64,000 bases of DNA from Squalus acanthias (taxonomy: Eukaryota), in contig CM059431.1 of assembly GCA_030390025.1 (NCBI GenBank), positions 159,280,001-159,344,000 on the forward strand, in the 5' to 3' direction. The notes below the pieces were generated by a model. That model was not told the origin of the DNA. It searched no databases and worked only from the letters and a program-made list of their open reading frames with translations. This document shows positions 32,444 through 46,400 of this stretch, piece after piece. Position 1 is the stretch's first letter. Every line of letters begins with the position of its first letter. The position numbers and the translations under genes are program-made.

Positions 32444-33904
32444 TGTCAGATTCTCAACATTCACAGATCCCCAAAACTCGAAGACAACCGTAAGGAAAAT
32501 ACTTTGGGCTCCTTTCTAGCTATTACAGGGTGCTGAAGGGCATTGGGTCTAACTGGAGGTCCCTTTGAGCAAAAAGCAAGATTTGGACTTTTCAAACATG
32601 TAAGGGAGAAAAGGCTGTGAAGGAAGGTGGGTTCAAACTCTGTAAAAAAAAGTGTGGGTATTGGAGCTAATGGGAACTGTCTGGGGAACTGCATGATCTC
32701 GCTGCGAGTTTAAATCGGCCCCTATCAGACATTAGCATCCTAACAATAAACCCGAGGAAAACCAGTCTCCACCCCAAGTTACAGAATCCATTAAGACATG
32801 CATGAAACAGATTACTTCGGCCTACTCCATAGAAATCAAAGGCCCAGCCAAGAAAACCCAAAACATAAGAACAATAAAACTCCGATTAATTGGCAAATTG
32901 ACAGGATGGGGGTCATCCCAGAATCACTTCACACCTTAACAAACCAGTTACCGTTAACGAGCCCGCCAAAACCATCAAAGACCGAGACCTGATTTGGCAC
33001 GCAGATAAGGAAGCTTCAATGGGTATAATTGAAGGCCCGTTCTCAACTTGTAAAAGAAGAAGAGGAAGGAAGAACAAGAAGACATTTGACGGAGGCATTC
33101 TCCGCAACACAGTTCAAAAACCAACACCATTTAGCATTCCGTGTCCAGCAAGGAGGTCGACAACTCGAAGGCTGGACCATCCAACAAAGTACGCCGACAC
33201 GTGAAGAAACCAGAACGACCGCCTCAGTGATCATCGGACACCTCGCGGCAACAAGGCCCTCAAGAAACAACCAACCAAACAACAAGTATTAATATTTGGT
33301 CCACCACGCCCAAAGAAAACCAACTCGAAGAAAACCGAAGAACCACAAAGTTTCCATTCTACAATCTATTCTTGACTTACCCCTGGGTAAGATTTTCCCT
33401 TAAAAAACTCTAAACCCTACTTCCAAACCAAAGAAAAGTGGGTACCCACCTGATAAATCCAATACGCATCCTATCGCATCAGTGGACTCGCGAAGACTGA
33501 CCAGATACGCAGTTGAAGTCCTCTACCGCGTATGGGGTACGGCAGACACCAACCGACATATAGAGTGAACCCCAACACCGCGAACTAACCTAACAGTCAA
33601 GGATTCTGGTGAGTATCATCCTTGGTCCTCTGGAGTCCAACTAGCTAGTAAAGTGGAATTGCGAGGGACGACGTACTCTTGCAATGTGATTTCCCTCGCT
33701 TGTACCGAAGTGTACCCCCACTTTTAGAGTTTTTAGAGTGTTTGTGTTGTGTTTTACTCTCTTGAATAAAGATCAAAGTCCTTGAATCAAAACCAGTTGT
33801 CTGCTGCACTTTTTATCACAACCCCCAAATAAGTCCAAAGTCTAGAACCAAGGGAGTGGGAGCGATTCGAACCGCTCAGAAGAGAGGTGAAGCTTTCACA
33901 AACC
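32444..33904 (+). repeat. 5' LTR (~1.46 kb; last bases and PBS TGG deleted)
   Basis: Colinear with 43471-44135 + 48498-49320; CTG|GTGAGT donor at 33609; AATAAA at 33765. Confidence 0.92.
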
Positions 33905-33918
33905 GACCGTGGCAGGAC
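33904..33918 (+). promoter_or_regulatory. Primer-binding site, tRNA-Arg-like
   Basis: CGACCGTGGCAGGAC matches the complement of a vertebrate tRNA-Arg 3' end as I recall it (TGGCGACCGCGGCAGGAC) with one mismatch; the TGG is lost in a small deletion. Confidence 0.65.
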
Positions 33919-33971
33919 CTTGGCAAAAGGGATGTGATGCAGTTGACACTGTTTTTGAGGAGAGAACCAAG

Positions 33972-35722
33972 ATGGAAGAGAGAATTTCCTCTTATGTGAT
34001 CGAGAAAGTGAACATAACCAAGAAATGGTTACTCAGTCTGTTGCGTGCTGAGCGTCCAATAGACGCTGCAGCTAAATGGACTTAGAGCAAGGACGACAAG
34101 AAATCTGTGGAAAAGGCCATCTGGTTGATCTGCTCCCAGCGACAGATCCAACTGTTAGACAAACGTGTTGAGGCACTTAAGGCAGAACTGCAGGAGTCTG
34201 CTCAGCTGTCTGAAGCAAGGGCCCTAGCAGGGGAAACATTACTGAATGAGTTAACAATCCGAAATCAGGAAAAAATGCAGCTAGTGGATACACACAGAAA
34301 CAGGCAGGAATATTTTCAGTGCCAGGTCACCGAAGCTAAAACCAGTGAACTGGTGTTGCGGGAAGAGAACACTCGCCTGGCCAAACAAGTAAGAGAGAAG
34401 GAGGAGAGGTTGAGAGGCGTCCAGGCCGCTTCCAAGATAGCAAACACGAGGGGGTATGAGGCGGCAGATGACGGTCCCTGCCAGAAACAAATCGGGAGCT
34501 TGATCCTTGGTCTGTCCAGGGCGAAAGGCGTGGTATGCCTACTAAGCCCGGGTGCGGACCGGGTGGAACTGGAAATGCAAAGGCAAACTTTTCGGACGCC
34601 ACCTGTGGTGCCGGGGAACCACCCGGTTTTGCAGCAGGAGGGACGGACAATTTGTGAGGCTGGCAGGGAGAGTAAACCACCACCTGTGGCGACGGGTTTT
34701 GAGTCGATTAGGCAGCTGGGAGGGGAGGGCGAACCAATGCAGGAAACGACGGAGCCGGGGCCGAAGTGCCCGTTCCGGCAGCAAATGTTTGGCACGCCTG
34801 GTCGTGGTGGGGGTCAAGTACCCCTTGAAATCCAATTTGTGGCTCCGCATGGCACCCAACAGCTTAAGTCTATGATAAAAAACCTGGGCAAGCTCACCCA
34901 AAAAGGAGACCCCTCAGTCCACTTCATGGAAGTGGAACAGGCAGCGGGTATCAACGACTGCGATGATGCCGTACTGGCAAAAATGCTCCTGTTCTCCCTA
35001 GATAGCAAAATTTACCAGTCCTTCTCTGCAGAGATTAAAAGAGGGCAGTGTGGATACGCTGCTATCCGGGAGGAAGTTCTGGAGGCCATGGGAATTAATG
35101 AAGGTTGTCCCTTCTCCTGGGTGGAGAAGACAACCCAGCTAGTAGGGGAGACCCCACAGGCATTCACAGACCGACTGTGGCCTGTATACAGGAGTGCCTG
35201 TAATGGGGTTATCGACCGGGCTCACCTGAATCAGAATGAGCTGGCCCACTGGCTCCGAAGCCTAGTGGCAAACAGCTTGCCACGGATCAGGGCCAATCTG
35301 AGCTGCGGTTTGACTCGAACGACCCCGGTGTCACCGAGGAGACAGTGATCAGACCACTGGCCCTGGCTTACCGGAATGGTAGAGGAACAGAAGAGCACCC
35401 ACCTGAGGGAAAGGTCCACGAAATAAGGCCTAGTAAAAGGAAAAAGTGGCACCAGGAATGGAGTAACCCTTCCGGCACGAATCGTAACTGCTTCGGTTGC
35501 GGGAAGATTTAGCATTGGCGAAAAGACTGTAGGAATCCGTGGAAGTATAACGTAGGGAAGAACTCCCCAGCTCCTGCCCCAAGCAGCGAAGCACCGACCA
35601 CTTCCCCCACGCTAGACTCGGTCATGGCCGTAATCCGAGCTCCAGTCAACGGCCCGGTGAAAGTTGCCACCGCCACTGGTGCTTTAGCCCCATTGCCCCC
35701 ATCCCCCAACTCAGACTCATGA
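33972..35722 (+). pseudogene. gag: gag (N-terminal coiled coil, capsid-like region, CCHC knuckle)
   Basis: ATG 33972 is in frame with ORF 34107-35348 (two stops between them); heptad-rich QLLDKRVEALKAELQE...; CFGCGKI*HWRKDC at 35489; ends at TGA 35720. Confidence 0.8.
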
Positions 35723-38700
35723 CTGGAACCAGCGCAGCCTGTCTACCTGTGTCTCTTGGAGTACGACGCATGGAAGAGAACACTCGTTAAGATGGAAGTG
35801 GAGAAGCTGAAAGTGACTTATCTGTTAGATACTGGAACTTTCAGCACCATAGTCTATTCAGCGAACTCCGCCGCCTCACCTCTGTCTAATGGGGTCCCGT
35901 ACAGTTTAATGGGGTTTACAGGTAACGAGCAGGCTGGCTCGTTCTCCATCCCGCTGTCTATTCAGTTAGGAGCACTCCACATCAAGTGGACCTGTGTCCT
36001 GATGAACTGGGAATGGGAAGGGACGGGGATCCTGGGGGCCAACTTTATCACAGGCCATAGGATTCTAGTGGATCTTAGGAACCACTGTCTGTGGGGAGCA
36101 TGTACCGGCAGAGAAAGTGAAGTGGCAGTCATCCCAGGGAAACAGGGCAAGGGGACCTTTTGCACCCTGAAACCAAAGGAAGGTTACGAACTCGAACGAA
36201 TGGTCAGTAACACTCCGATGGCATACCAGGCATTTGTGCGAGTTCACCTCGCAGCATTTGCCACTCACAAGCACGATTATGGGAGGCTAAACGGGGTCGA
36301 GGTTATTGTCAGCGGGGACCCCATGACCCAACGACAGAAGCAATACAATTTCCCCAGGGAGGCAGAAGCCGACATGGAAAAGGCCATGGCTTCTTTAGTA
36401 ACACAGGGGGTATTGAGATCGATAGCCACCCACGTAAACTCTCCACTGTGGCCGGTTAGAAAACCAAACAACTCCTGGAGGGCCACAGTGGACTATCGGG
36501 TACTCAACCGTAACATCTCCGCCTGTGCACCCACGGTAGCAGCCGTCGCCGACCTCATCAGAAGTATCCCAGCATCTGCGACGACTTTCAAAGTGCTGGA
36601 CATTTCCAACGGGCTTTGGTCCATCCCTTTACGAAGACAGGACCAGTACAAGTTCACCTTCACTTTTAAAGGACAACAGTACACCTGGAACTGCCTACCT
36701 CAGGGCTTCCACAAGAGCCCTAGCATTTTTCACCAATGCATGGCGAATTGTTTGAATGGCTTCAGCCGGCCCCGTCAGTTGATACAATATGTGGATGGCC
36801 TACTCCTGTTCACCGATGAGGGAGCGGAACACGGTCCACTACTGGCTGAACTGCTGGAGCTGCTCCGGCAAGAAGGCTTCAAGGTAAACCCCAAAAAGTT
36901 ACAGATCGGTCAACTGGAAGTAAAATTCCTAGGGCTAACTGTGCGCGCTGGGGAAAGGGCCATCGTCAAAGCTAGGAGGGAAGCAGTGCAGAGTTACCAG
37001 CCCCCAACACAGTCAAAGGAGTGAGATCCTTTTTAGGGCTAACCAGGTACTGCAGAGATTTTATTGAGGATTATGCAGACACCGCAGCCCCTCTGCTCCG
37101 ACTCCTACACAGGGTGTGGAGTGGGACTTGGACGAGGGTTGCGAGGCAGCCTTTCTCAAGTTAAAGAAAGATCTGCAGACCGCGCCGGCTCCAGGGGCTA
37201 TTGATGGGGAGAGTAAGTTTTTCCTGGAGGTGGCAGCCAGCGGGGACAGTCTGAGTGCCGTGCTGCTCCAAGAGAGGCACGTCCGGCTGAGACCGATGGT
37301 TTACTCCTCCAGGATACTCACCGATGTGGAGAAGGGCTATTCCAACTGTGAGAGGCACCTCTTCGCCTCTCACTGGGCTGTGAAAAGATCACTGATCTTC
37401 ACAGGCACATCTCCCATCACCCTGCTCACCAATCACACGACCACCCAGATGCTCCTAGATGGGAGAATCGAAGACGGGACAGTGAGCAGTGCCCGTATTG
37501 CTCGCTGGACCCTGCTTCTCTCCAAGATGGACCTAAGGGTGAAAGGTCTCTGCGAGCCGAAGCTCGCGGCCAAAATGATCTACCCAGGGACAGCCCACCG
37601 GTGTTCCATTGAAGTGGTATGGGAAGTTATCTTGTTTTTCGGGCCGGGATACACCCCACAGGCCGCGAAATCTACGTGGACCGTTCGAGCACAGTATCTT
37701 CTGGCAAGCAACTCACCGGGTGTGGATTTTATGACCAGGAGGAAGGCATTGCCCTGGCAATTAAACTCCCCATCCCCATGAGCGCCCAGCAGGCTGAACT
37801 GTCCGCGGTAGTGTACCTGGTTACACACCCCGAGAAGTTCCCTACACCATACACGATTTGCTCGGACAGCATGTTCACATGCAATTCGTGTACGCAGTAC
37901 CTCGCCATCTGGTCCCGTCGCGGAAATAACTCCGCTGAGGGGAGACCCCTCACCATAAAGCCCCTGTTGGAGAAAATCATGCGGCTGTGGGGGAGGAAGG
38001 GAAGGTCTATATCCATAAGGTCAAGGCCCATTCAAAGACAGAGCCCAGGTGGGAGAGTAACTGTAAGGCAGACGAGCAGGCCAAACAGGGGGCCAGGGAT
38101 GGAGTATTCTGCGATCCGTAGCAAATTGGTCCGGTAGCCGCAATCCGGAGAAAGGGAGGCACCTAAGGGGTAGCCTTGGCCCCGGACTTAAAACAGGCCC
38201 AAGCCCAGGATACCCTCCTCAAGGCCTTCCTGAACGCCCTTGAAAAAGGGGAAAAAGATAAAGGGCTTGTACGGCACAGCAGCCATCACCTTTAAGAAAG
38301 GCATGCTGTTCAGGGGGGAGCAGTGGGTGGTGCCGCTTAGAAGGGAATTCCTTCAACTGGCCCATGAGGGTCCAGGAGCGGGGCATCCCGGACCTGAGAC
38401 CACCTGGCAACGGATGGAACAGACAGGATGGTAGCCAGGACTGAGGAAGAAGTCTGCGTGTTTTGTGTCGGCTGTTTGGTGTATGCTGCTAACAATCCAG
38501 ACTCCCAGAAAAGGAAGGTATCTATGGGACTCATCAGGAGGGTAGAAGGACCATGGCAGTCGATCTAGGTCGATTACATCAGGACCCTACCCACCGCCCA
38601 GGGAGGATTTAAGTACTAACTAGTCCTTGTCTATGGGTTCTCTAAGTGGGTGGAAGCGTTCCCATGCCGTACTGCTATCGCATTGCGTACGGCTAGGATT

Positions 38701-40532
38701 CTGATCAGGGAAGTTGTCTCATGATGGGGACTACCGCAGTATGTGGAGACCGACCATGGGAGGCATTTTACCGGGCAGGTCATGCAGAAGACCCTCAGGG
38801 TACTCGGCATCGAAGGGAAATGGCACATCGCCCACAACCCGCAGTGATCGGGTCCTGTGGAGCGGTTAAACCATACCATTAAGGAAAGGCTACTGAAGGA
38901 AATGGGAGACTCGCCCAAGAAGAGGGTAGAGAGACCTGGGTGTTCTTGTACACCAGTCACTGAAGGCGAGCATGCAGGTGCAACAGGCGGTCAAGAAGGC
39001 AAACGGTATGCTGGCCTTCATAGCAAAAGGGTTGGAATACAGGAACAGGGATACCTTGCTGCAGCTGTACAGGGCACTGGTGAGACCACACCTCGAGTAC
39101 TGTGTACAGTTTTGGTCGCCTTATCTGAGGAAAGATGTTCTTGCCATGGAGGGGGTGCAGCGGCGATTCACCAGGCTGATACCAGGAATGGCGGGATTGA
39201 CCTATGAGTAGAGACTATGTAGTTTAGGGATGTACACACTGGAGTTTAGAAGATTGAGAGGGGACCTCATAGAAGTGTATAAAATTCTGACAGGTCTAGA
39301 CAGACTAGATGCAGAAGGAATGTTTCCCTTGGCGGGTGAGAACAGAACTAGAGCACATAATTTAAGGATAAGGGCTAAACCATTTAGGACAGAAATGAGG
39401 GGAAATGTCTTCATTCAGAGGGTGGTGAACCTGTGGAACTCATTGCCACAGGGGGCAGTGTACGCCAGCTCATTAAATATATTTAAGAGGGAATTAGATA
39501 TATTTCTACAGGCAAAAGGGGTTAAGGGTTACGGAGAGAAGGCGGGGACGGGATACTGAATTGGAGGATCAGCCATGTTCTCATTAAATGGCAGAGCAGG
39601 CTCGAAGGGCCGGATGGCCTACTCCTGCTCCTATCTTCTATGTAAAAGTCTTACCGTTGTTCCTAATGGGGATCCGAGCTAGCCAGTCAAAAAGTACGGG
39701 GTATTCCCCACACCAGCTAATGACTGGCAGGATTATGCGGACCCCCACCCATGTGCTAGCCCCGGTGCTCAGGGAGGGTCAGCTCAGTAAGGTGAACCGG
39801 TACAGCTTCGTCAGGAATCTGTTTGAAAAACTTAAACAGGTTCACTGGCAGGCTGCTAGCAACATGGGAAAACAGCATCGGAGTAACCGACTGCTGCTAG
39901 AACCCCGCAAGCACCACGAGTGGGAGATAGGGGATCAGGTCATGGTTAGGAATTTTGCCCGAGTAGGGAGTTTCGAACCACTGTACATGGGGCTGTACAG
40001 CTTTGTCGACAAGTCAGGCCTCATGGTCTACGCCATAACGATGCCCCGCCGGACAAAGTGATTCCACATGAACCAGTGTAAGCTGCTTAAACCCAAAGGG
40101 GAACAGCCAGCAAAGGCGATACGCCCTAAATGTAGAGATCCTCAGCAAGCAGCTGTGGCAGACTCACAGAACACACCGCTAGGGGCAGTGTGCTGTAGCA
40201 CAGGAGGGGCCACCCCACCAACTATGTGGGACTCGGACGCACCCTCGGTACCGGGAGTCCTAAGAAGGTCTCCTCGCACACCACAGCCAGAACTACCGTG
40301 GACACCAGAGCTTCAATGGTTCAGCCCAGCAAGGGCTGCGACCCGAAAGAGAATAGCCAAATTCAGGGGTCATTCCAAGAAAATGGTTCCCCAGGCAGCG
40401 GCCACAGGCTGCGAGGAACCCACAGGACAGGACAGTGCCTTGCAGCCACACCAAATGGGGCGGTGTGCTGTAGCACAGGAGGGGACACTCCCCGGATTAT
40501 CAGGGATTCAGGGAAACCCTCAGTTGTTTTAA
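35723..40532 (+). pseudogene. pol: pol (protease, RT, tether RNase H, RNase H, integrase), frameshifted, with a CR1 insertion
   Basis: YLLDTG; NSPLWPVRKP..SWRATVDYR; LDISNG; LPQGFHKSPSIF; YVDG; FFLEVAAS..LSAVLLQE; IYVDRS...SAQQAEL...SDS...HKVKAH; H..PGAGHPG; VDYI...ETDHG...VERLNHTIK. Confidence 0.92.
38931..39641 (+). mobile_element. Short CR1 3' fragment inserted into the proviral integrase
   Basis: Flanked by GTAGA/GTAAA; integrase rejoins (SPKKRV..VLPLFLMGIRA); nearly identical to 56287-56990. Confidence 0.92.
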
Positions 40533-40829
40533 GAAGGACTCTCAAGGTCCTGCAGTACAGGCCACCTTACGCCCAGGCGTACAGGCTGCTCAGAAGCTGC
40601 AAGACAGAGGCCATACAGGATTTAGTCTGGCCGTCCAGAGACGGGCGGCGTATGTACAGAGTTTAAACTGTATTTTAGGTGTGTTTTACAGTTTTGGTAG
40701 TTTTAGTTTTAGTGAGTTTATTTTACCTAAGTAAGTTTAAATTTTCGAGACTCGATCACCTGTCAAGCCAAAGAACCTTCTCGGGACACGGCTATCTGTT
40801 TTGTGTGTCCCTACAGAGAGGAAATCTGC

Positions 40830-43177
40830 ATGACAAGGGTTCTGCTCCTGATCGCCCTGGTAGGGGTGAGCATCAGCGACGAAGGTGACGTTTAGGACTC
40901 CCACATTTATGTGTGCTTGGGAGAGAGAGCGCCGATCGTTACCGCTGGGGGTGGCAAACCGGGTGTGGAGGAGCTCGCTATTTACTTCCATGAGGGAAGC
41001 TGGCCAGGGTTGCTGGGGTTTAACTCTACAGAATACTCCAGCCAGACCGGGTTCACATACGGGGAGGCCTCCATCCCGTGCCCCAGGGTACAGGTCGTTG
41101 CTACAAGGGTCAGTGTCACTGAGGGGAAACATGTGTGTCTCACCTGCAAGGGTCGGATTCCCCTGGATAGGTGGTGGTGGCTCAGGAAGCTGAGCAGCGA
41201 CATAGGGGACCGTGCAGCTGGCTGGGAACGACTGGGGAACGACAGCTACCGGCCGATCACAGGGACCCAAGGGGGTGTGAGTGTTTGTTGGGACAAGTGG
41301 TGGGAGTCAGAACAGGGAATCTATGTCTGTATGTGGGTATCAGAGAGAGACTGCCCCACAGGCATATCCATCATCTTCTCCAGACAATGGCAAGATGCCG
41401 GGTAGGGGATGGGGGTGGGACTCTAGCCTACATGGGAGCACGCTCCCACACTCCCCGATCCCAGTCAACGCCACCGAACTAGTAGCACGCCCACGAAAGC
41501 CCCTGCCCACTCCCACGACATCACGGACAGTGATGGAGAGGTGTACTACAACCAACAAGGGACCAGAGAATGGGCTAGTGCAAGTGCCGACCGAAAATGT
41601 ACTCTGCCAGGGGGGAACAATATGCAATAGCTTCAGTTATCCTAAACCTTACCGAGGTAGACTTACCTGAGTGGTGTCCTAACGAGACAGAAGAGCTATA
41701 CCAGGCCCTGCTGAAAGAGTTGTTTAGGAAATTCTACGAATTCGACTTTGCCAACATAGACAAAGCAGAGCTGTACAAACTACACGCAGAGCACACTATG
41801 GGCGCAGGGAGACAGAGAAGGGGGACCTGAAACGATATTTTCACAACCTGCAATACAGGATCCTCTGTAATAAATAGCCTGGACGATATAGAACTGCAAA
41901 CACAGAAAAATGGTCTAAAAACACAACTGAGAAAGATCCTAACGGAAGAAAACACAGTTGTATGCTCAGAGCTACACGATGACCAAGCTATGACGGTCCA
42001 TTTAAAGGAGATTATTTCTGAGCTAGAGAGACACGCAAAAACAGTAAACGCACTCATACGGGAGGATAGGACTGCTTCGGATCAGGCTCCACAGAATGAG
42101 GTGTGTGTGCTATACGGGGCATGGTTGCTGGGCGAGGGCCGCAGCAATCTGGAGGATTTAAAACAAAGTTTAGTCCCCTCCTGGATTAGCAACAAACACC
42201 TCACAGCCCTCCTCCCGTTAAGCAATTCGCTGAGCCCATGTCAACTCCGCCTAGCCTCTGAAGCCTGCCCAGTCCCTGTAGATTGTGGGCGTTCCAATCA
42301 CTCTATCATTTGGATAGTGGTGAGGATGCCGGTCATGGGTGGGACAGCCCGTCCCGAAGCGGTATAAAGGGTGGATAACATTAGGGTCATTCAAGGGGGT
42401 GCACACGTCCGTTTCGCAGCGGTCCCACCTTATGTCATAAAGTGGGAGCACGCTATGACGGGTACTGACCTCTCCAGGTGCCGGAGCCGGGATGCACACA
42501 TAATACTGTGTCCCCAGCACTTGAATGCCTATTCTAGACCACAGTGCGGGTTTAAAGCTGCTGGCGCACAACCTATCAACTGTAGCATGGATGTAATGGC
42601 ACAAGGCCATGTTCCCCCACAGGTAGAATTCATAGGGGGTGGGACATTTCGTGTCACCAAAAGTGTGCCCCACTACCACCATGGACAGCACATCTGGTGT
42701 CCGGTAAGTGACAGTTGTTTCTGCTTTAAACCAGAGGCAGAAGTTCAAGTGGCCCAGGAACGGATTGTTCCCATTCCTGAACCCTCAACTGTTCACATCA
42801 CTGTCAGGGAAAACATTACTAACCTGCAAAACTATGTCACATTCTTCGGCTATAAGATTGCTCCTCTACCCGAACATTTTACCGCCCGACTCAAAGCAGT
42901 ACAAGTATCGCAAAAACATTTCTACACTCTGGAACAAAAGACAGTCGAGATAGGGGCCGAGATTTCAGGCATCATAATTCCACCCTGGTGGGATATTTTC
43001 GAAAATATAGAGGTCCCATTCTGGATCAGAATGGCTTCCCATATTTTAGTGGTCAGCCAGCTTGGCACACTTCTCTACTTACTGTGCACAAAATGCAAGG
43101 GAAAGGACAGAGTGTTCCGATCCCGACATGAGAAAGCATGGGACCAGCATTACAATAAAGCCTATGGCCAGGTTTAG
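40830..43177 (+). pseudogene. env: env: signal peptide, Ig-like domain, Pro/Thr stalk, F2-like subunit, furin site, F1-like subunit, TM
   Basis: Acceptor ttttgtgtgtccctacAG (40816) then MTRVLLLIALVGVSIS; RQRR at 41810-41821; heptad repeat; Cys cluster (CPVPVDCG, CRSRDAHIILCP...CGF...NCSM); TM ILVVSQLGTLLYLLC; stops at 40893, 41828 and 42365, plus frameshifts. Confidence 0.8.
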
Positions 43178-43470
43178 GGCGAGCCTGAATTGTTTTATTA
43201 AAATGAATAAAGTTTTTGTGAACGTTTATTATTATTTTTGCTATGTATGTAATACTTTCCAACTGGTGCAGGGGTGTGGGACCCCCTCCATGCTTGGATG
43301 TGAATGTAACTGGATTCTTACCTGTGCCTGCATCTGAGCACTACATCAACAGGGAAATGTGTGTTTTGGGTCTTAGATAGGTAAACTGCAGGGGAAGGTT
43401 GGTTCTCGAGGATCAGGAATTTTGCTCACCCGGTATGATACTCTAGCTGGTAAAGTATCACAGCGGGAAC

Positions 43471-46400
43471 AGTAATATTCTCAAAATTCAGAGATTCCCC
43501 AAAACACGAAGACAAACCCTAAGGAAAAAGACTTTGGACTCCTTTCTACCTATTACAGGGTGGTGAAGTTCATTGTGCCTAACCGGAGGACCTGTTGAGC
43601 AAAAAACAAGATTTGGTACTTTTCAAACATGTCTGGGCTTGTAAGGGAGAAAAAGCTGTGAAGGAACGTGGGTTCAACCTCTGTAAAAACAGTTTGGGTA
43701 TTGGAGCTAATCGGAACTGTCTGGGGAACCGCATGATCTCGTTGGGAGTTTAAATCGGCCCCTATCAGACATTAGCATCCTAAAAATAAGCCCGAGGAAA
43801 ACCAGTCTCCACTCCAAAGTTACAGAGCTCATTAAGACATGCATAAAACAGATTACTTCGGCATACCCTATACAAATCATAGGCCCAGCCAAGAAAACCC
43901 AAAACATAGGAACAATCAAACTCCGATTAAGTGGCACATCAACGGGATGGGGCCATCCTGGAACCAGTTCACACCTTAACAAACCAGTGACAGTTGATGA
44001 GCCCGCCAAAACTAACAAAGACCGAGACCTGATTTGGCGCGCAGATAAGGAACCTTCAATGCGTATTATTGAAGGCCCGTTCTCAACCTGAAAAAGAAGA
44101 AGAGGAAGGAAGAACAAGAAGATATCGACGGAGGCGGCGGACCTGGGTGGAGCGACAGCTGCGAGGCGGCGGCAATGAAAGGCGGCAGCGAGCAGGTAGG
44201 GCCACAGAGGCGGCGGACCTCGGTGGAGCCCCGAGAGCGGGAGAGAGAGAAGTAAAAAATAATCAAAGTGTGACGTCACCAGAAAGCAGGTAAGTGATTG
44301 GTTGGTGATTATTTCTCTTTTTACCCTTTTTCCAAACTTAAATTTTGTTGTTTATTGTTTCTAGTGTCTCTGTGGTGTTTGGGGGACAGTTGGTAAACGT
44401 GGGCCCTATATCATTTAATTATAGTATAATTGGTGGGATTGATTTGATTTAATCATGGCACCGTGGTATGCTCGGTGCCATGGTATGATTCTCCTGCGCT
44501 ACGTGGGAAATCGTTGACACTTCCTGTATCCCTGACGACCATGTGTGCAGGAAGTTTATCCAGCTGCAGCTACTGGCATATCGCATTGTGGCGCTGGAGC
44601 TGCGAATGGATACATACTGGAGCATTCGCGATGCTGTGGACCAAGTGGATAGCACGTTTATCCATTTGGTCACACCGCAGATAAAGTTTGCACAGGCAGA
44701 AAGGGAATGGGTGACCACCAGGCAGAGTACTAGGCACAGGCAGTTAGTGCAGGAGTCCCCTGTGGACATCCTCCTCTCAAACAGATATACCGCTTTGGAT
44801 ACTGTTGAGGGGGATGGCTTATCAGGGGAAGGCAGCAGCAGTCAACTTCCTGGCACCAGGGGTGGTTCTGCTGCACAGGACGGGAGGAAAAAGAGTGGGA
44901 GAGCTATAGTGATAGTAGATTCCATTGTAAGGTGAATAGATAGGCGTTACTGCGGCCGCAAACGAGACTCCAGGATGGTGTGTTGCCTCCCTGGTGCAAG
45001 GGTCAAGGATGTCTCAGAGCGGCTGCAGAACATTTTGGAAGGGGAGGGTGAACAGCCAGTTGTCGTGGTGCATATAGGTACCAACGATATAGGTAAAAAA
45101 CGGGATGATGTCCTAAAAGCTGAATATAGGGAGTTAGGAGGTAAATTAAAAAATAGGACCTCAAAGGTAGTAATCTCAGGATTGCTACCAGTGCCACGTG
45201 CTAGTCAGCGTAGAAATAGAAGGATATTTCAGCTGAATACGTGGCTAGAGTAATGGTGCAAGGGGGAGGGATTCAAATTCCTGGGAAAATGGAACCGGTT
45301 CTGAGGGAGGTGGGACCACTACAAATCGGACAGTTTGCACCTGGCCAGGACCGGGACTGATGTCCTTGGGGGAGTGTTTGCTAGTGCTCTGGGGGAGGGT
45401 TTAAAGTAAAATGGCAGGGGGTTGGGAACCTGAGCAGGGAGACACAGGAAAGGGAAACAAGGATGGAAGCAGAAGTCAGGAAGGAAAAATTCAAAGATGT
45501 CAGTCAGAGAAATCAAGGGTTTAAATCAAACGTGGCCACAGTAAATAATAATTCTAAAAGGTCTAAGAGCGTAAAACATACAAGCCTGAACGCTTTGTGT
45601 CTTAATGAGAGGAGCATTCATAATAAGGTGGATGAACTAGCTGCGCAAATAGAGGTAAATGAATATGGTATGATTGGGATTACGGAAACATGGCTCCAGG
45701 GTGACCAAGGCTGGGAACTCAACATACAGGGGTATTCAATATTCAGAAAATATAGGCAAAAATGAAAAGGAGTTCGGGTAGCATTGCTGGTTAAAGAGGG
45801 AATTAACACAATTGTAAGTAAGTATATCAGCTCTTATGATGTAGAATCTGTATGGGTAGAACTGAGAATTACCAAGGGGCAGCAAACGCTAGTGGGAGTG
45901 GTGTAGAGACCCCCAAACACTAATACGGAGGTTGGGGATGGCATTACAAGGGAAATTAGAGAAGCGTGCAATAAGAGCACAGCAGTTATCATGGGCTACT
46001 TTAATCTACATAAAGATTGGGCTAACCAAATTAGTAACAATACTGTGGAAGAGGAATTCCTGAAGTGCATACGGGATGGTTTCCTGGACCAATATGTCGA
46101 GGAACCAAATAGAGATCAGGCCATCTGAAACTGGGTATTATGTAATGAGAAAGGATTAATTAGCAATCTTGTTATGCGAGGCCCCTTCAGTCAGAGCGAT
46201 CATAATATCATAGAATTCTTCATTAAGGTGGGGGGTGAAGTAGTTGACTCAGAGACTAGGGTCCAGAATTTAAATAAAGGGAACTACGATGGTATGAGGC
46301 GCGAGTTGGGTAGGATTGATTGGGGAATGTCACTCAAAGGGTTGACGGTGGATAGGCAATGGGAAACATTCAAAGATCGCATGAATGAACTACATAATTT

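Follow-up and report, generated by a model that had tools for sequence, protein, structure and literature searches.

Background

Class I fusogens of the F type are usually treated as fusion-only proteins that are triggered by a separate attachment protein, and paramyxoviruses have such a protein in HN, H or G. In the gammaretroviruses, taking Friend murine leukemia virus (MLV) as the example, the surface subunit (SU) of the envelope protein (Env) consists of an N-terminal immunoglobulin (Ig)-like beta-sandwich receptor-binding domain (RBD), a proline-rich region and a C-terminal domain; to our knowledge, the MLV RBD does not have the canonical sequence hallmarks of the immunoglobulin superfamily (IgSF). 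F-like retroviral Envs are already on record in the lokiretroviruses (PMC7947760) and the foamy viruses (PMC11468914). Here we consider an endogenous retrovirus (ERV) in a stretch of 64,000 nucleotides of the Squalus acanthias genome (contig CM059431.1, positions 159,280,001 to 159,344,000, forward strand; hereafter the window), in which the env gene probably encodes a built-in receptor-binding Ig-like head on an F-type class I fusogen, all within one type I membrane glycoprotein. Set against the F-like Envs as the main texts of those papers describe them, it is the Ig-like N-terminal head that differs.

Similarity of Env to the F proteins of the Mononegavirales is part of the definition of the lokiretroviruses, as given in the main text of PMC7947760. 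The hosts named in the main texts of PMC7947760 and PMC9040795 are lampreys, bony fishes, amphibians and reptiles, with cartilaginous fishes unmentioned there, and the word "immunoglobulin" occurs 0 times in either main text. In the foamy Env gp130 (8RM0), the main text of PMC11468914 describes an F-like core of domains I, II and III, with the RBD (residues 217-543), a previously unseen fold, placed in domain III upstream of the furin site between SU and the transmembrane (TM) subunit, and a leader peptide with a second furin site. A preprint on anamniote Envs (10.1101/2021.11.23.469661) deals with gamma-type Envs only, and our literature searches found no paper on an Ig-like head joined to an F-like retroviral Env.

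Layout of the env gene

The env gene comes after pol, its end lies about 310 nt short of the 3' long terminal repeat (LTR), and the window has no other glycoprotein gene. Its parts are as follows.

40830..43177, forward strand: env gene, whole, broken by four stops and two +1 insertions
40830..40877, forward strand: signal peptide MTRVLLLIALVGVSIS, hydrophobic, directly after the ATG at 40830 (read from the sequence)
40884..41084, forward strand: pre-Ig segment of about 65 residues, conserved, with an invariant G-x-N-S...S-S...Y block in 13 sequences
41085..41402, forward strand: Ig-like (V/I-type) domain, the proposed receptor-binding head (sub-threshold Pfam Ig_3 matches, AlphaFold2, Foldseek, VIA, hallmark residues, dN/dS)
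41403..41541, forward strand: linker rich in Pro and Thr, containing an NAT sequon, the TAG at 41403 and one +1 insertion
41542..41809, forward strand: F2-like segment, from CTTTNKGP, where the alignments of distant relatives begin (query 224-236); also placed by VIA
41810..41821, forward strand: RQRR polybasic (furin-type) cleavage site, put at the human parainfluenza virus type 3 (hPIV3) F cleavage site by a weak stretch of the profile alignment
41822..43030, forward strand: F1-like ectodomain, with a fusion-peptide region, a long heptad-repeat A (HRA) helix, beta-rich domains I/II and a heptad-repeat B (HRB)-like helix at 42875-42964
43031..43087, forward strand: transmembrane anchor MASHILVVSQLGTLLYLLC, 19 hydrophobic residues (read from the sequence)
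43088-43174, forward strand: short tail of about 29 residues, followed by the stop codon at 43175-43177

Measured against a natural open copy of the gene, the window copy has stops at 40893 (TAG), 41403 (TAG), 41828 and 42365, corresponding to codons 22, 192, 333 and 512, and +1 insertions near 41409 in the linker and near 41608 in the F2-like segment. The first-pass annotation of this DNA, made from the letters alone, had seen one frameshift in the linker; the second insertion, the TAG at 40893 and the pre-Ig segment had gone unmentioned. Its description of the linker as a mucin-like stalk was too strong for a stretch of about 50 residues, roughly a third of them Pro, Thr or Ser, with a single N-glycosylation sequon and predicted disorder; its predicted local distance difference test score (pLDDT) is below 50 in both structure models described below. 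Three N-glycosylation sequons lie in the head region.

The N-terminal head

Several lines of evidence suggest that the head very probably has an Ig fold. The motif reads RVQVVATRVSVTEGKHVCLTC-x8-WWWLRK...WESEQGIYVC at 41106-41330, its opening stretch also being given as RVSVTEGKHVCLTC, and follows the pattern Cys-x10-Trp...G-x-Y-x-C with the core Cys pair 61 residues apart. The spacing of the core pair and the presence of two extra Cys were read correctly at first pass, while the spacer, given then as x9, is x8. C106, W117, G163, Y165 and C167 are invariant in all nine aligned sequences, which come from the S. acanthias genome, a skate and a sawshark, and the two further Cys (in VCLTC and VSVCW) are invariant in the relatives. 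A Pfam check, which had been proposed along with the motif, brought up Ig_3 as the sole or nearly the best match in three sequences, each time under the gathering score: the window piece (E=0.021, 15.7 bits, its only match), a natural open reading frame (ORF; E=0.083, 13.8 bits, one of three weak matches) and a metagenomic relative (E=0.0085, 17.0 bits, its only match).

An AlphaFold2 model of the head (residues 19-225, from a 13-sequence alignment) has pLDDT 66-81 in its core, residues 80-150, and six strands at the expected places. All 50 matches that Foldseek listed for it in the Protein Data Bank (PDB) are Ig-fold chains, among them light-chain variable (VL) domains, basigin and obscurin, with E of about 1e-4. 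Superposition with VIA-align gave Z 9.4-10.0 at a root-mean-square deviation (rmsd) of 2.4-3.1 over 88-98 aligned residues, with Z>=8 for 891 of 996 chains; the best match is a VL chain (Z 10.0, rmsd 2.6, 96 of 107 residues aligned), and the structural matches include cellular V domains, basigin and CD79b. The named neighbours of the head in the ESM-Atlas are V-set, I-set or ig clusters, with scores of 0.90-0.91 that serve as leads only. The viral structures in BFVD that resemble it are Ig-like glycoproteins encoded by herpes-, pox- and adenoviruses, CD200-like and IL-1-beta-binding immunomodulators included, and no retroviral or paramyxoviral protein is among the 50 matches listed. The first-pass annotation had proposed a fold prediction as a check on its Ig-like motif. 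The core of the model and its Foldseek and VIA matches bear the proposal out with moderate confidence, and the motif itself is real: its hallmarks are invariant in the nine sequences and kept in a sister family, and it goes together with the Ig_3 matches and a V-domain fold.

The pre-Ig segment is modelled with pLDDT below 50. Against V domains, the VIA alignments set in at model residue 27, and on this model the segment may provide the Ig sandwich with its first strand.

The fusion core

The part of the protein beyond the linker appears to be of the F type, as the first pass had proposed for the F2-like segment, RQRR and F1. A profile of 29 family sequences (A4), run against PDB sequences, matched hPIV3 F0 (6mjz_A) in domains I/II and HRB (F residues 254-476; E=1.4e-5, 26.9 bits), and in a second, weak stretch RQRR and the segment after it fall on the F cleavage site and fusion peptide. 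Reading of the sequence finds, in order, RQRR upstream of a fusion-peptide region and HRA, an HRB-like helix, a transmembrane anchor and a short tail. Because PF00523 was never reported for single sequences, the homology to F rests on the profile search and the fold.

As to the fold, an AlphaFold2 model of 622 residues (29-sequence alignment) shows helices at 352-444 and strands at 477-560. All 50 matches that Foldseek listed for the F core are paramyxoviral or pneumoviral F proteins, with E from 1.2e-8 (1ztm_C, the best) to 5e-4. With VIA, 49 of 50 rows are F at Z 7.5-9.4, middling by the tool's own scale, over 205-293 aligned residues, and the remaining row is foamy Env. On the model, these alignments open at residue 242-245; on the side of the matched chain, 48 of the 50 rows open within F residues 6-36, the other two being a respiratory syncytial virus F chain (73) and foamy Env (144). 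Model residue 244 onward, in the F2-like segment, falls on F residues 23-36 onward. Since the alignments begin so near the start of F, the first ~243 residues are an N-terminal addition to a complete F-like protein.

Copies, open frame and selection

A search of the 3.7 Gb genome gave 42 rows from at least 40 distinct loci, at 86-100% identity, with the whole Ig segment present in 39 of 40. Codons 1-622 of env aligned in all 30 loci that were fetched, at 90.7-95.6% nucleotide identity. In three natural copies (L006, L019 and L028; 622, 615 and 579 codons) one and the same frame stays open from the start Met into F1, most of which it covers, taking in signal peptide, head, linker and RQRR on the way. 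A comparison with other copies, proposed at first pass, thus gives one continuous ORF from head to F and an Ig segment that is not specific to the window locus. Given the open frame in these copies and the Ig segment in nearly every locus, we can exclude the possibilities that the head and the F part are separate ORFs or that the head is a local insertion.

Twenty-five copies entered the codon comparison, the window copy being L001. L012, L021 and L024, whose BLAST rows did not span the full range, were left out, as were L009, which an insertion splits, and L026, which duplicates L025. Over codons 1-622, two of the 25 are free of stops and frame-shifting indels. The ratio of nonsynonymous to synonymous rates (dN/dS; Nei-Gojobori method, NG86), pooled over the 300 pairs, is 0.32 in the pre-Ig segment (codons 19-85), 0.24 in the Ig domain (codons 86-190), 0.47 in the linker (codons 191-237), 0.19 in codons 238-345 (F2, cleavage site and fusion-peptide region) and 0.30 in codons 346-622 (the rest of F1). 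The Ig head is under purifying selection as coding sequence, in line with the F part.

One copy, L002, lies about 335 kb upstream of the window env on the same contig; the two are 99% identical and share the same four stops (codons 22, 192, 333 and 512). That identity and the shared stops point to a segmental duplication after the death of the provirus, not to two integrations.

Sister family and wider relatives

A second ERV family, represented by locus L031 on the same contig, has an env that is 71.6% identical over 619 amino acids and shares the head, linker and F-like core. In the locus that was fetched its frames are open, gag, pol and env are the only frames seen, and Pol has the order protease-reverse transcriptase (PR-RT), tether, RNase H, integrase by Pfam; the window family is older and decayed. 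Synonymous sites are saturated between the two families (pS 0.55-0.88), and they were therefore compared by raw pN and pS. At the amino acid level F1 is the best conserved part (85% identity), followed by codons 238-345 (72%), the Ig domain (65%), the pre-Ig segment (54%) and the linker (49%), and all eight of the Ig hallmark residues checked are kept. An outer part that diverges faster than the fusion subunit beneath it is what SU and TM would be expected to show. The nearest relatives of the window env are skate and shark gene models, and the same head is found in those of Rhinoraja, Pristiophorus and Rhincodon. These sequences indicate that this Env clade has long had the Ig head as a lineage-specific module, and that the head is not a recent insertion at the window locus.

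More distant relatives of the F core, from Mustelus, Chiloscyllium, Pristiophorus, the frog Pelodytes and a further locus (L032), are 21-39% identical and have other N-terminal heads; for those from Mustelus, Chiloscyllium and Pelodytes the identity is 21-33%. Those of P0010 and P0019 (Mustelus and Pristiophorus) are Cys-rich, while P0013 (Chiloscyllium) and P0028 (Pelodytes) show Ig-like motifs by eye, and the automatic UniRef name of P0013 is "Ig-like domain-containing protein". BLASTP of the window head against P0013 and P0028 was not significant (E 0.36 and 0.8), and hhalign with the head only gave a probability of at most 0.9% for each of the four distant heads, about the level of shuffled controls; the head-only alignment to P0028 (E 0.026) spans the Ig region in register. 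When the head-region profile (A3), which contained long rows, was aligned to P0013 and P0028 by hhalign, the F parts alone were matched. A word-indexed search with profile A4 returned 16 proteins, all of them close relatives, with no new distant ones.

The family thus extends to an amphibian and seems to swap heads. We would tentatively suggest, as a possibility that we rate well below an even chance, that cartilaginous fishes and at least one frog host an undescribed retrovirus clade whose F-like Env fusogen carries interchangeable, lineage-specific N-terminal heads. If so, such a clade would form a natural series in which an F-type fusogen gains and exchanges an attachment module in cis.

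Four public gene models (P0004, P0005, P0011 and P0016) have pieces of env fused to zinc-finger, Niban-like or protease sequences. They are probably annotation chimeras of ERV fragments and host exons.

Origin of the head

The first-pass annotation took the head to be a captured host Ig domain. We considered the possibility that it was taken from a host IgSF gene and binds its receptor by mimicking a host adhesion or immune receptor. The canonical IgSF hallmarks are present, which is unusual for viral beta-sandwich RBDs; the fold resembles cellular V domains, basigin and CD79b; and the nearest viral look-alikes in BFVD are the Ig-like glycoproteins from herpes-, pox- and adenoviruses, for which a host origin is generally accepted. 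A search for a host donor gave a different picture. With phmmer, the whole 622-residue protein matched 34 proteins at E<=0.001 among 1.84 billion representatives, all through parts of env and none of them a host IgSF protein, host IgSF not having been searched with a head-only profile. The best structural matches have 10-16% sequence identity, and the head is common to the skate and shark relatives and to the sister family, so any capture must be ancient. Capture from the host, with mimicry as its mode of action, is therefore a doubtful explanation in our view, and the claim as first made is unsupported. In the tentative picture of an undescribed clade sketched above, the remote source of the head might have been an IgSF receptor of the host, within the group of vertebrates in which adaptive immunity first appeared.

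Proposed function and its alternatives

In the window, env is the only glycoprotein gene, and thus a built-in attachment head is the natural reading of the N-terminal addition. The precursor would trimerise and be cut at RQRR, a motif observed in the sequence, to give an SU-like subunit (Ig head, linker and F2) and a TM-like F1 subunit. The membrane-distal head would then bind a molecule on the host cell surface, and this binding, in cis, would free the metastable F-like core to refold into a six-helix bundle and fuse the membranes, by homology to the F of paramyxoviruses and pneumoviruses. That the head binds a host molecule is probable, as far as can be judged from sequences, on three grounds: env has no companion glycoprotein gene, purifying selection acts on the head, and the head changes faster than F1 does. 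The idea of attachment and fusion in a single chain was already put forward at first pass and agrees with the absence of a second glycoprotein gene; its novelty was overstated, as foamy Env already combines an RBD and an F-like fusogen in one chain.

A number of results weigh against this reading. The head model has a mean pLDDT of 48.4, the other four of the five models reach 30-38, and the 622-residue model averages 51.5, rising to 70-88 over much of residues 250-310 and 400-560; both models come from shallow alignments (13 and 29 sequences), and AlphaFold2 is able to give beta-rich sequences an Ig-like sandwich. No Pfam Ig-clan model reaches its gathering score (the cut-off for Ig_3 is 30 bits, the best score 17.0), and profile A3 had 0 matches at E<=10 among PDB sequences. 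On the F side, hmmscan did not report PF00523 in five window pieces, three natural ORFs, 14 relatives or the sister env; phmmer of a 655-residue natural ORF against PDB sequences gave chance matches alone (E>=0.14); and the Foldseek TM-scores of the F core are 0.18-0.41, besides the middling VIA scores. The pooled pairs behind dN/dS are phylogenetically non-independent. Finally, pneumovirus F and the F-like proteins of baculoviruses and errantiviruses can attach without a dedicated head, so that a head is not strictly required.

Some of these points would be expected if the head were not a true Ig domain but a Cys- and Trp-rich beta segment that resembles the pattern by chance and was forced into a sandwich by AlphaFold2. 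The low mean confidence with four of five models at 30-38, Pfam scores of 14-17 bits where 30 are required, a head profile with no PDB-sequence matches and hhalign probabilities of at most 0.9% against the distant heads all lean that way. We nevertheless regard this explanation as improbable: a Cys-x10-Trp...G-x-Y-x-C pattern with Cys 61 residues apart is invariant across the relatives, Ig_3 is the sole or nearly the best Pfam match in three separate family members, and VIA superposes 96 of 107 VL residues at an rmsd of 2.6, with the ESM features in agreement.

If the head is an Ig domain, it might still serve mainly in immune evasion or shielding, as a decoy, a glycan shield or an immunomodulator, with the F-like core itself attaching as pneumovirus F does. 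The greater divergence of head and linker relative to F1 between the families (65% and 49% against 85% identity) and the three sequons of the head region would suit such a role, as would the immunomodulators among its look-alikes in BFVD. A receptor-binding SU would also evolve faster, however, and a dN/dS of 0.24 with strict conservation of the core speaks for a folded functional domain, an argument that does not tell the two roles apart. We consider a mainly shielding head to be an outside chance, and retain the receptor-binding head on an F-type fusogen as the probable reading.

The provirus and its surroundings

The env region is part of an old, dead ERV with many family copies in the genome. 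The LTR retroelement occupies 32450-44136 of the window, about 11.7 kb, with the following features besides env.

32450..33100 (approximate ends), forward strand: 5' LTR, from direct repeats D1-D3 at a spacing of 11040 and from pairwise alignment
34086..40061, forward strand: gag-pro-pol, decayed, from ORFs and, in pol, Pfam matches
43490..44136 (approximate ends), forward strand: 3' LTR, on the same repeat and alignment evidence as the 5' LTR

The LTRs are each about 650 bp and 88-93% identical to each other. A domesticated host gene was considered and rejected: LTRs, gag and pol are present, decayed copies number at least 40, and four stops break the window copy.

The order in pol is PR-RT, an RNase H-like tether, RNase H and then integrase. 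Pfam gives RVT_1 (E=8e-29), RT_RNaseH (1e-16) and RNase_H (1e-9), so that the dual RNase H appears as RT_RNaseH/RT_RNaseH_2 followed by RNase_H. Among solved structures, the best match of the window RT is foamy PR-RT (E=4e-34), followed by MLV and the xenotropic MLV-related virus XMRV (1e-28) and Ty3 (2.5e-20), a ranking that would fit a basal retroviral position and a loki-like one alike.

In the gag region, a CCHC zinc knuckle (C-x2-C-x4-H-x4-C) lies at 35480-35560; it is interrupted by a stop at 35510-35512 and does not share the frame of the main gag ORF. Foamy Gag, in contrast, is not known to have a CCHC knuckle. The N-terminal part of the gag ORF (34086-34500) has a long, heptad-like, charged helical stretch, QIQLLDKRVEALKAELQ. 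An SMC-like gene has been reported in some lokiretroviruses, according to the main text of PMC7947760.

The integrase is split by an inserted fragment at ~38848-39560 that looks by eye like the C-terminal part of ORF2 from a long interspersed nuclear element (LINE) of the CR1/L2 type; Pfam gave no significant match for it. Between the end of integrase and env (~40140-40560), two alike peptides, GAVCCSTGG...TP..., occur about 270 nt apart in different frames, which suggests a degraded direct duplication; it is absent from a repeat search at a minimum length of 80. Beyond the 3' LTR, at 44936-46128, there are LINE-like ORFs by eye, namely an esterase-like (SGNH-type) piece of ORF1 and the endonuclease/RT start of ORF2.

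Comparison with known systems

The overall plan is like that of gammaretroviral SU, where an N-terminal beta-sandwich RBD and a Pro-rich linker likewise precede a part proximal to the fusion subunit. The fusion subunits differ, as the gammaretroviral one is a gamma-type TM, with an immunosuppressive domain (ISD) and CX6CC, while that of the window Env is of the F type. With paramyxo- and pneumovirus F, the window Env shares the fold and the succession of elements between the mature F2 N-terminus and HRB, including a polybasic site before the fusion peptide and HRA. F begins right after its signal peptide, whereas the window Env has about 225 extra residues, the head and linker, at that point, and its fusion-peptide region is more polar.

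The likeness to lokiretroviruses, as the main text of PMC7947760 describes them, takes in an F-similar Env (signal peptide, RXKR-type site, fusion peptide, coiled coil and transmembrane anchor), together with a dual RNase H, although the last is common to the window family, the lokiretroviruses and canonical retroviruses. Sequence similarity to F, on which the lokiretroviral Env is defined, is found in the window family by profile, with no direct match to PF00523. No N-terminal Ig-like head is described in that main text, and the window family has one. Retroviruses with sequence-detectable F-like Envs are thereby extended to cartilaginous fishes, a class of hosts that is not listed for lokiretroviruses in the main texts cited above. 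If the head binds a receptor, this Env would be a tractable model for the triggering of an F-like core in cis and for the exchange of heads between related Envs.

Foamy Env is alike in having an F-like core and its own RBD in one chain, and 8rm0_A matches our model with Z 7.8 over 233 residues. Compared with foamy Env as set out in the main text of PMC11468914, the window Env has its Ig-like module N-terminal to F2, a plain signal peptide and a single RQRR. Foamy Env came by a built-in RBD through insertion into domain III, and the window family would represent a second, simpler route, in which an N-terminal Ig-like head is carried on a flexible Pro/Thr linker.

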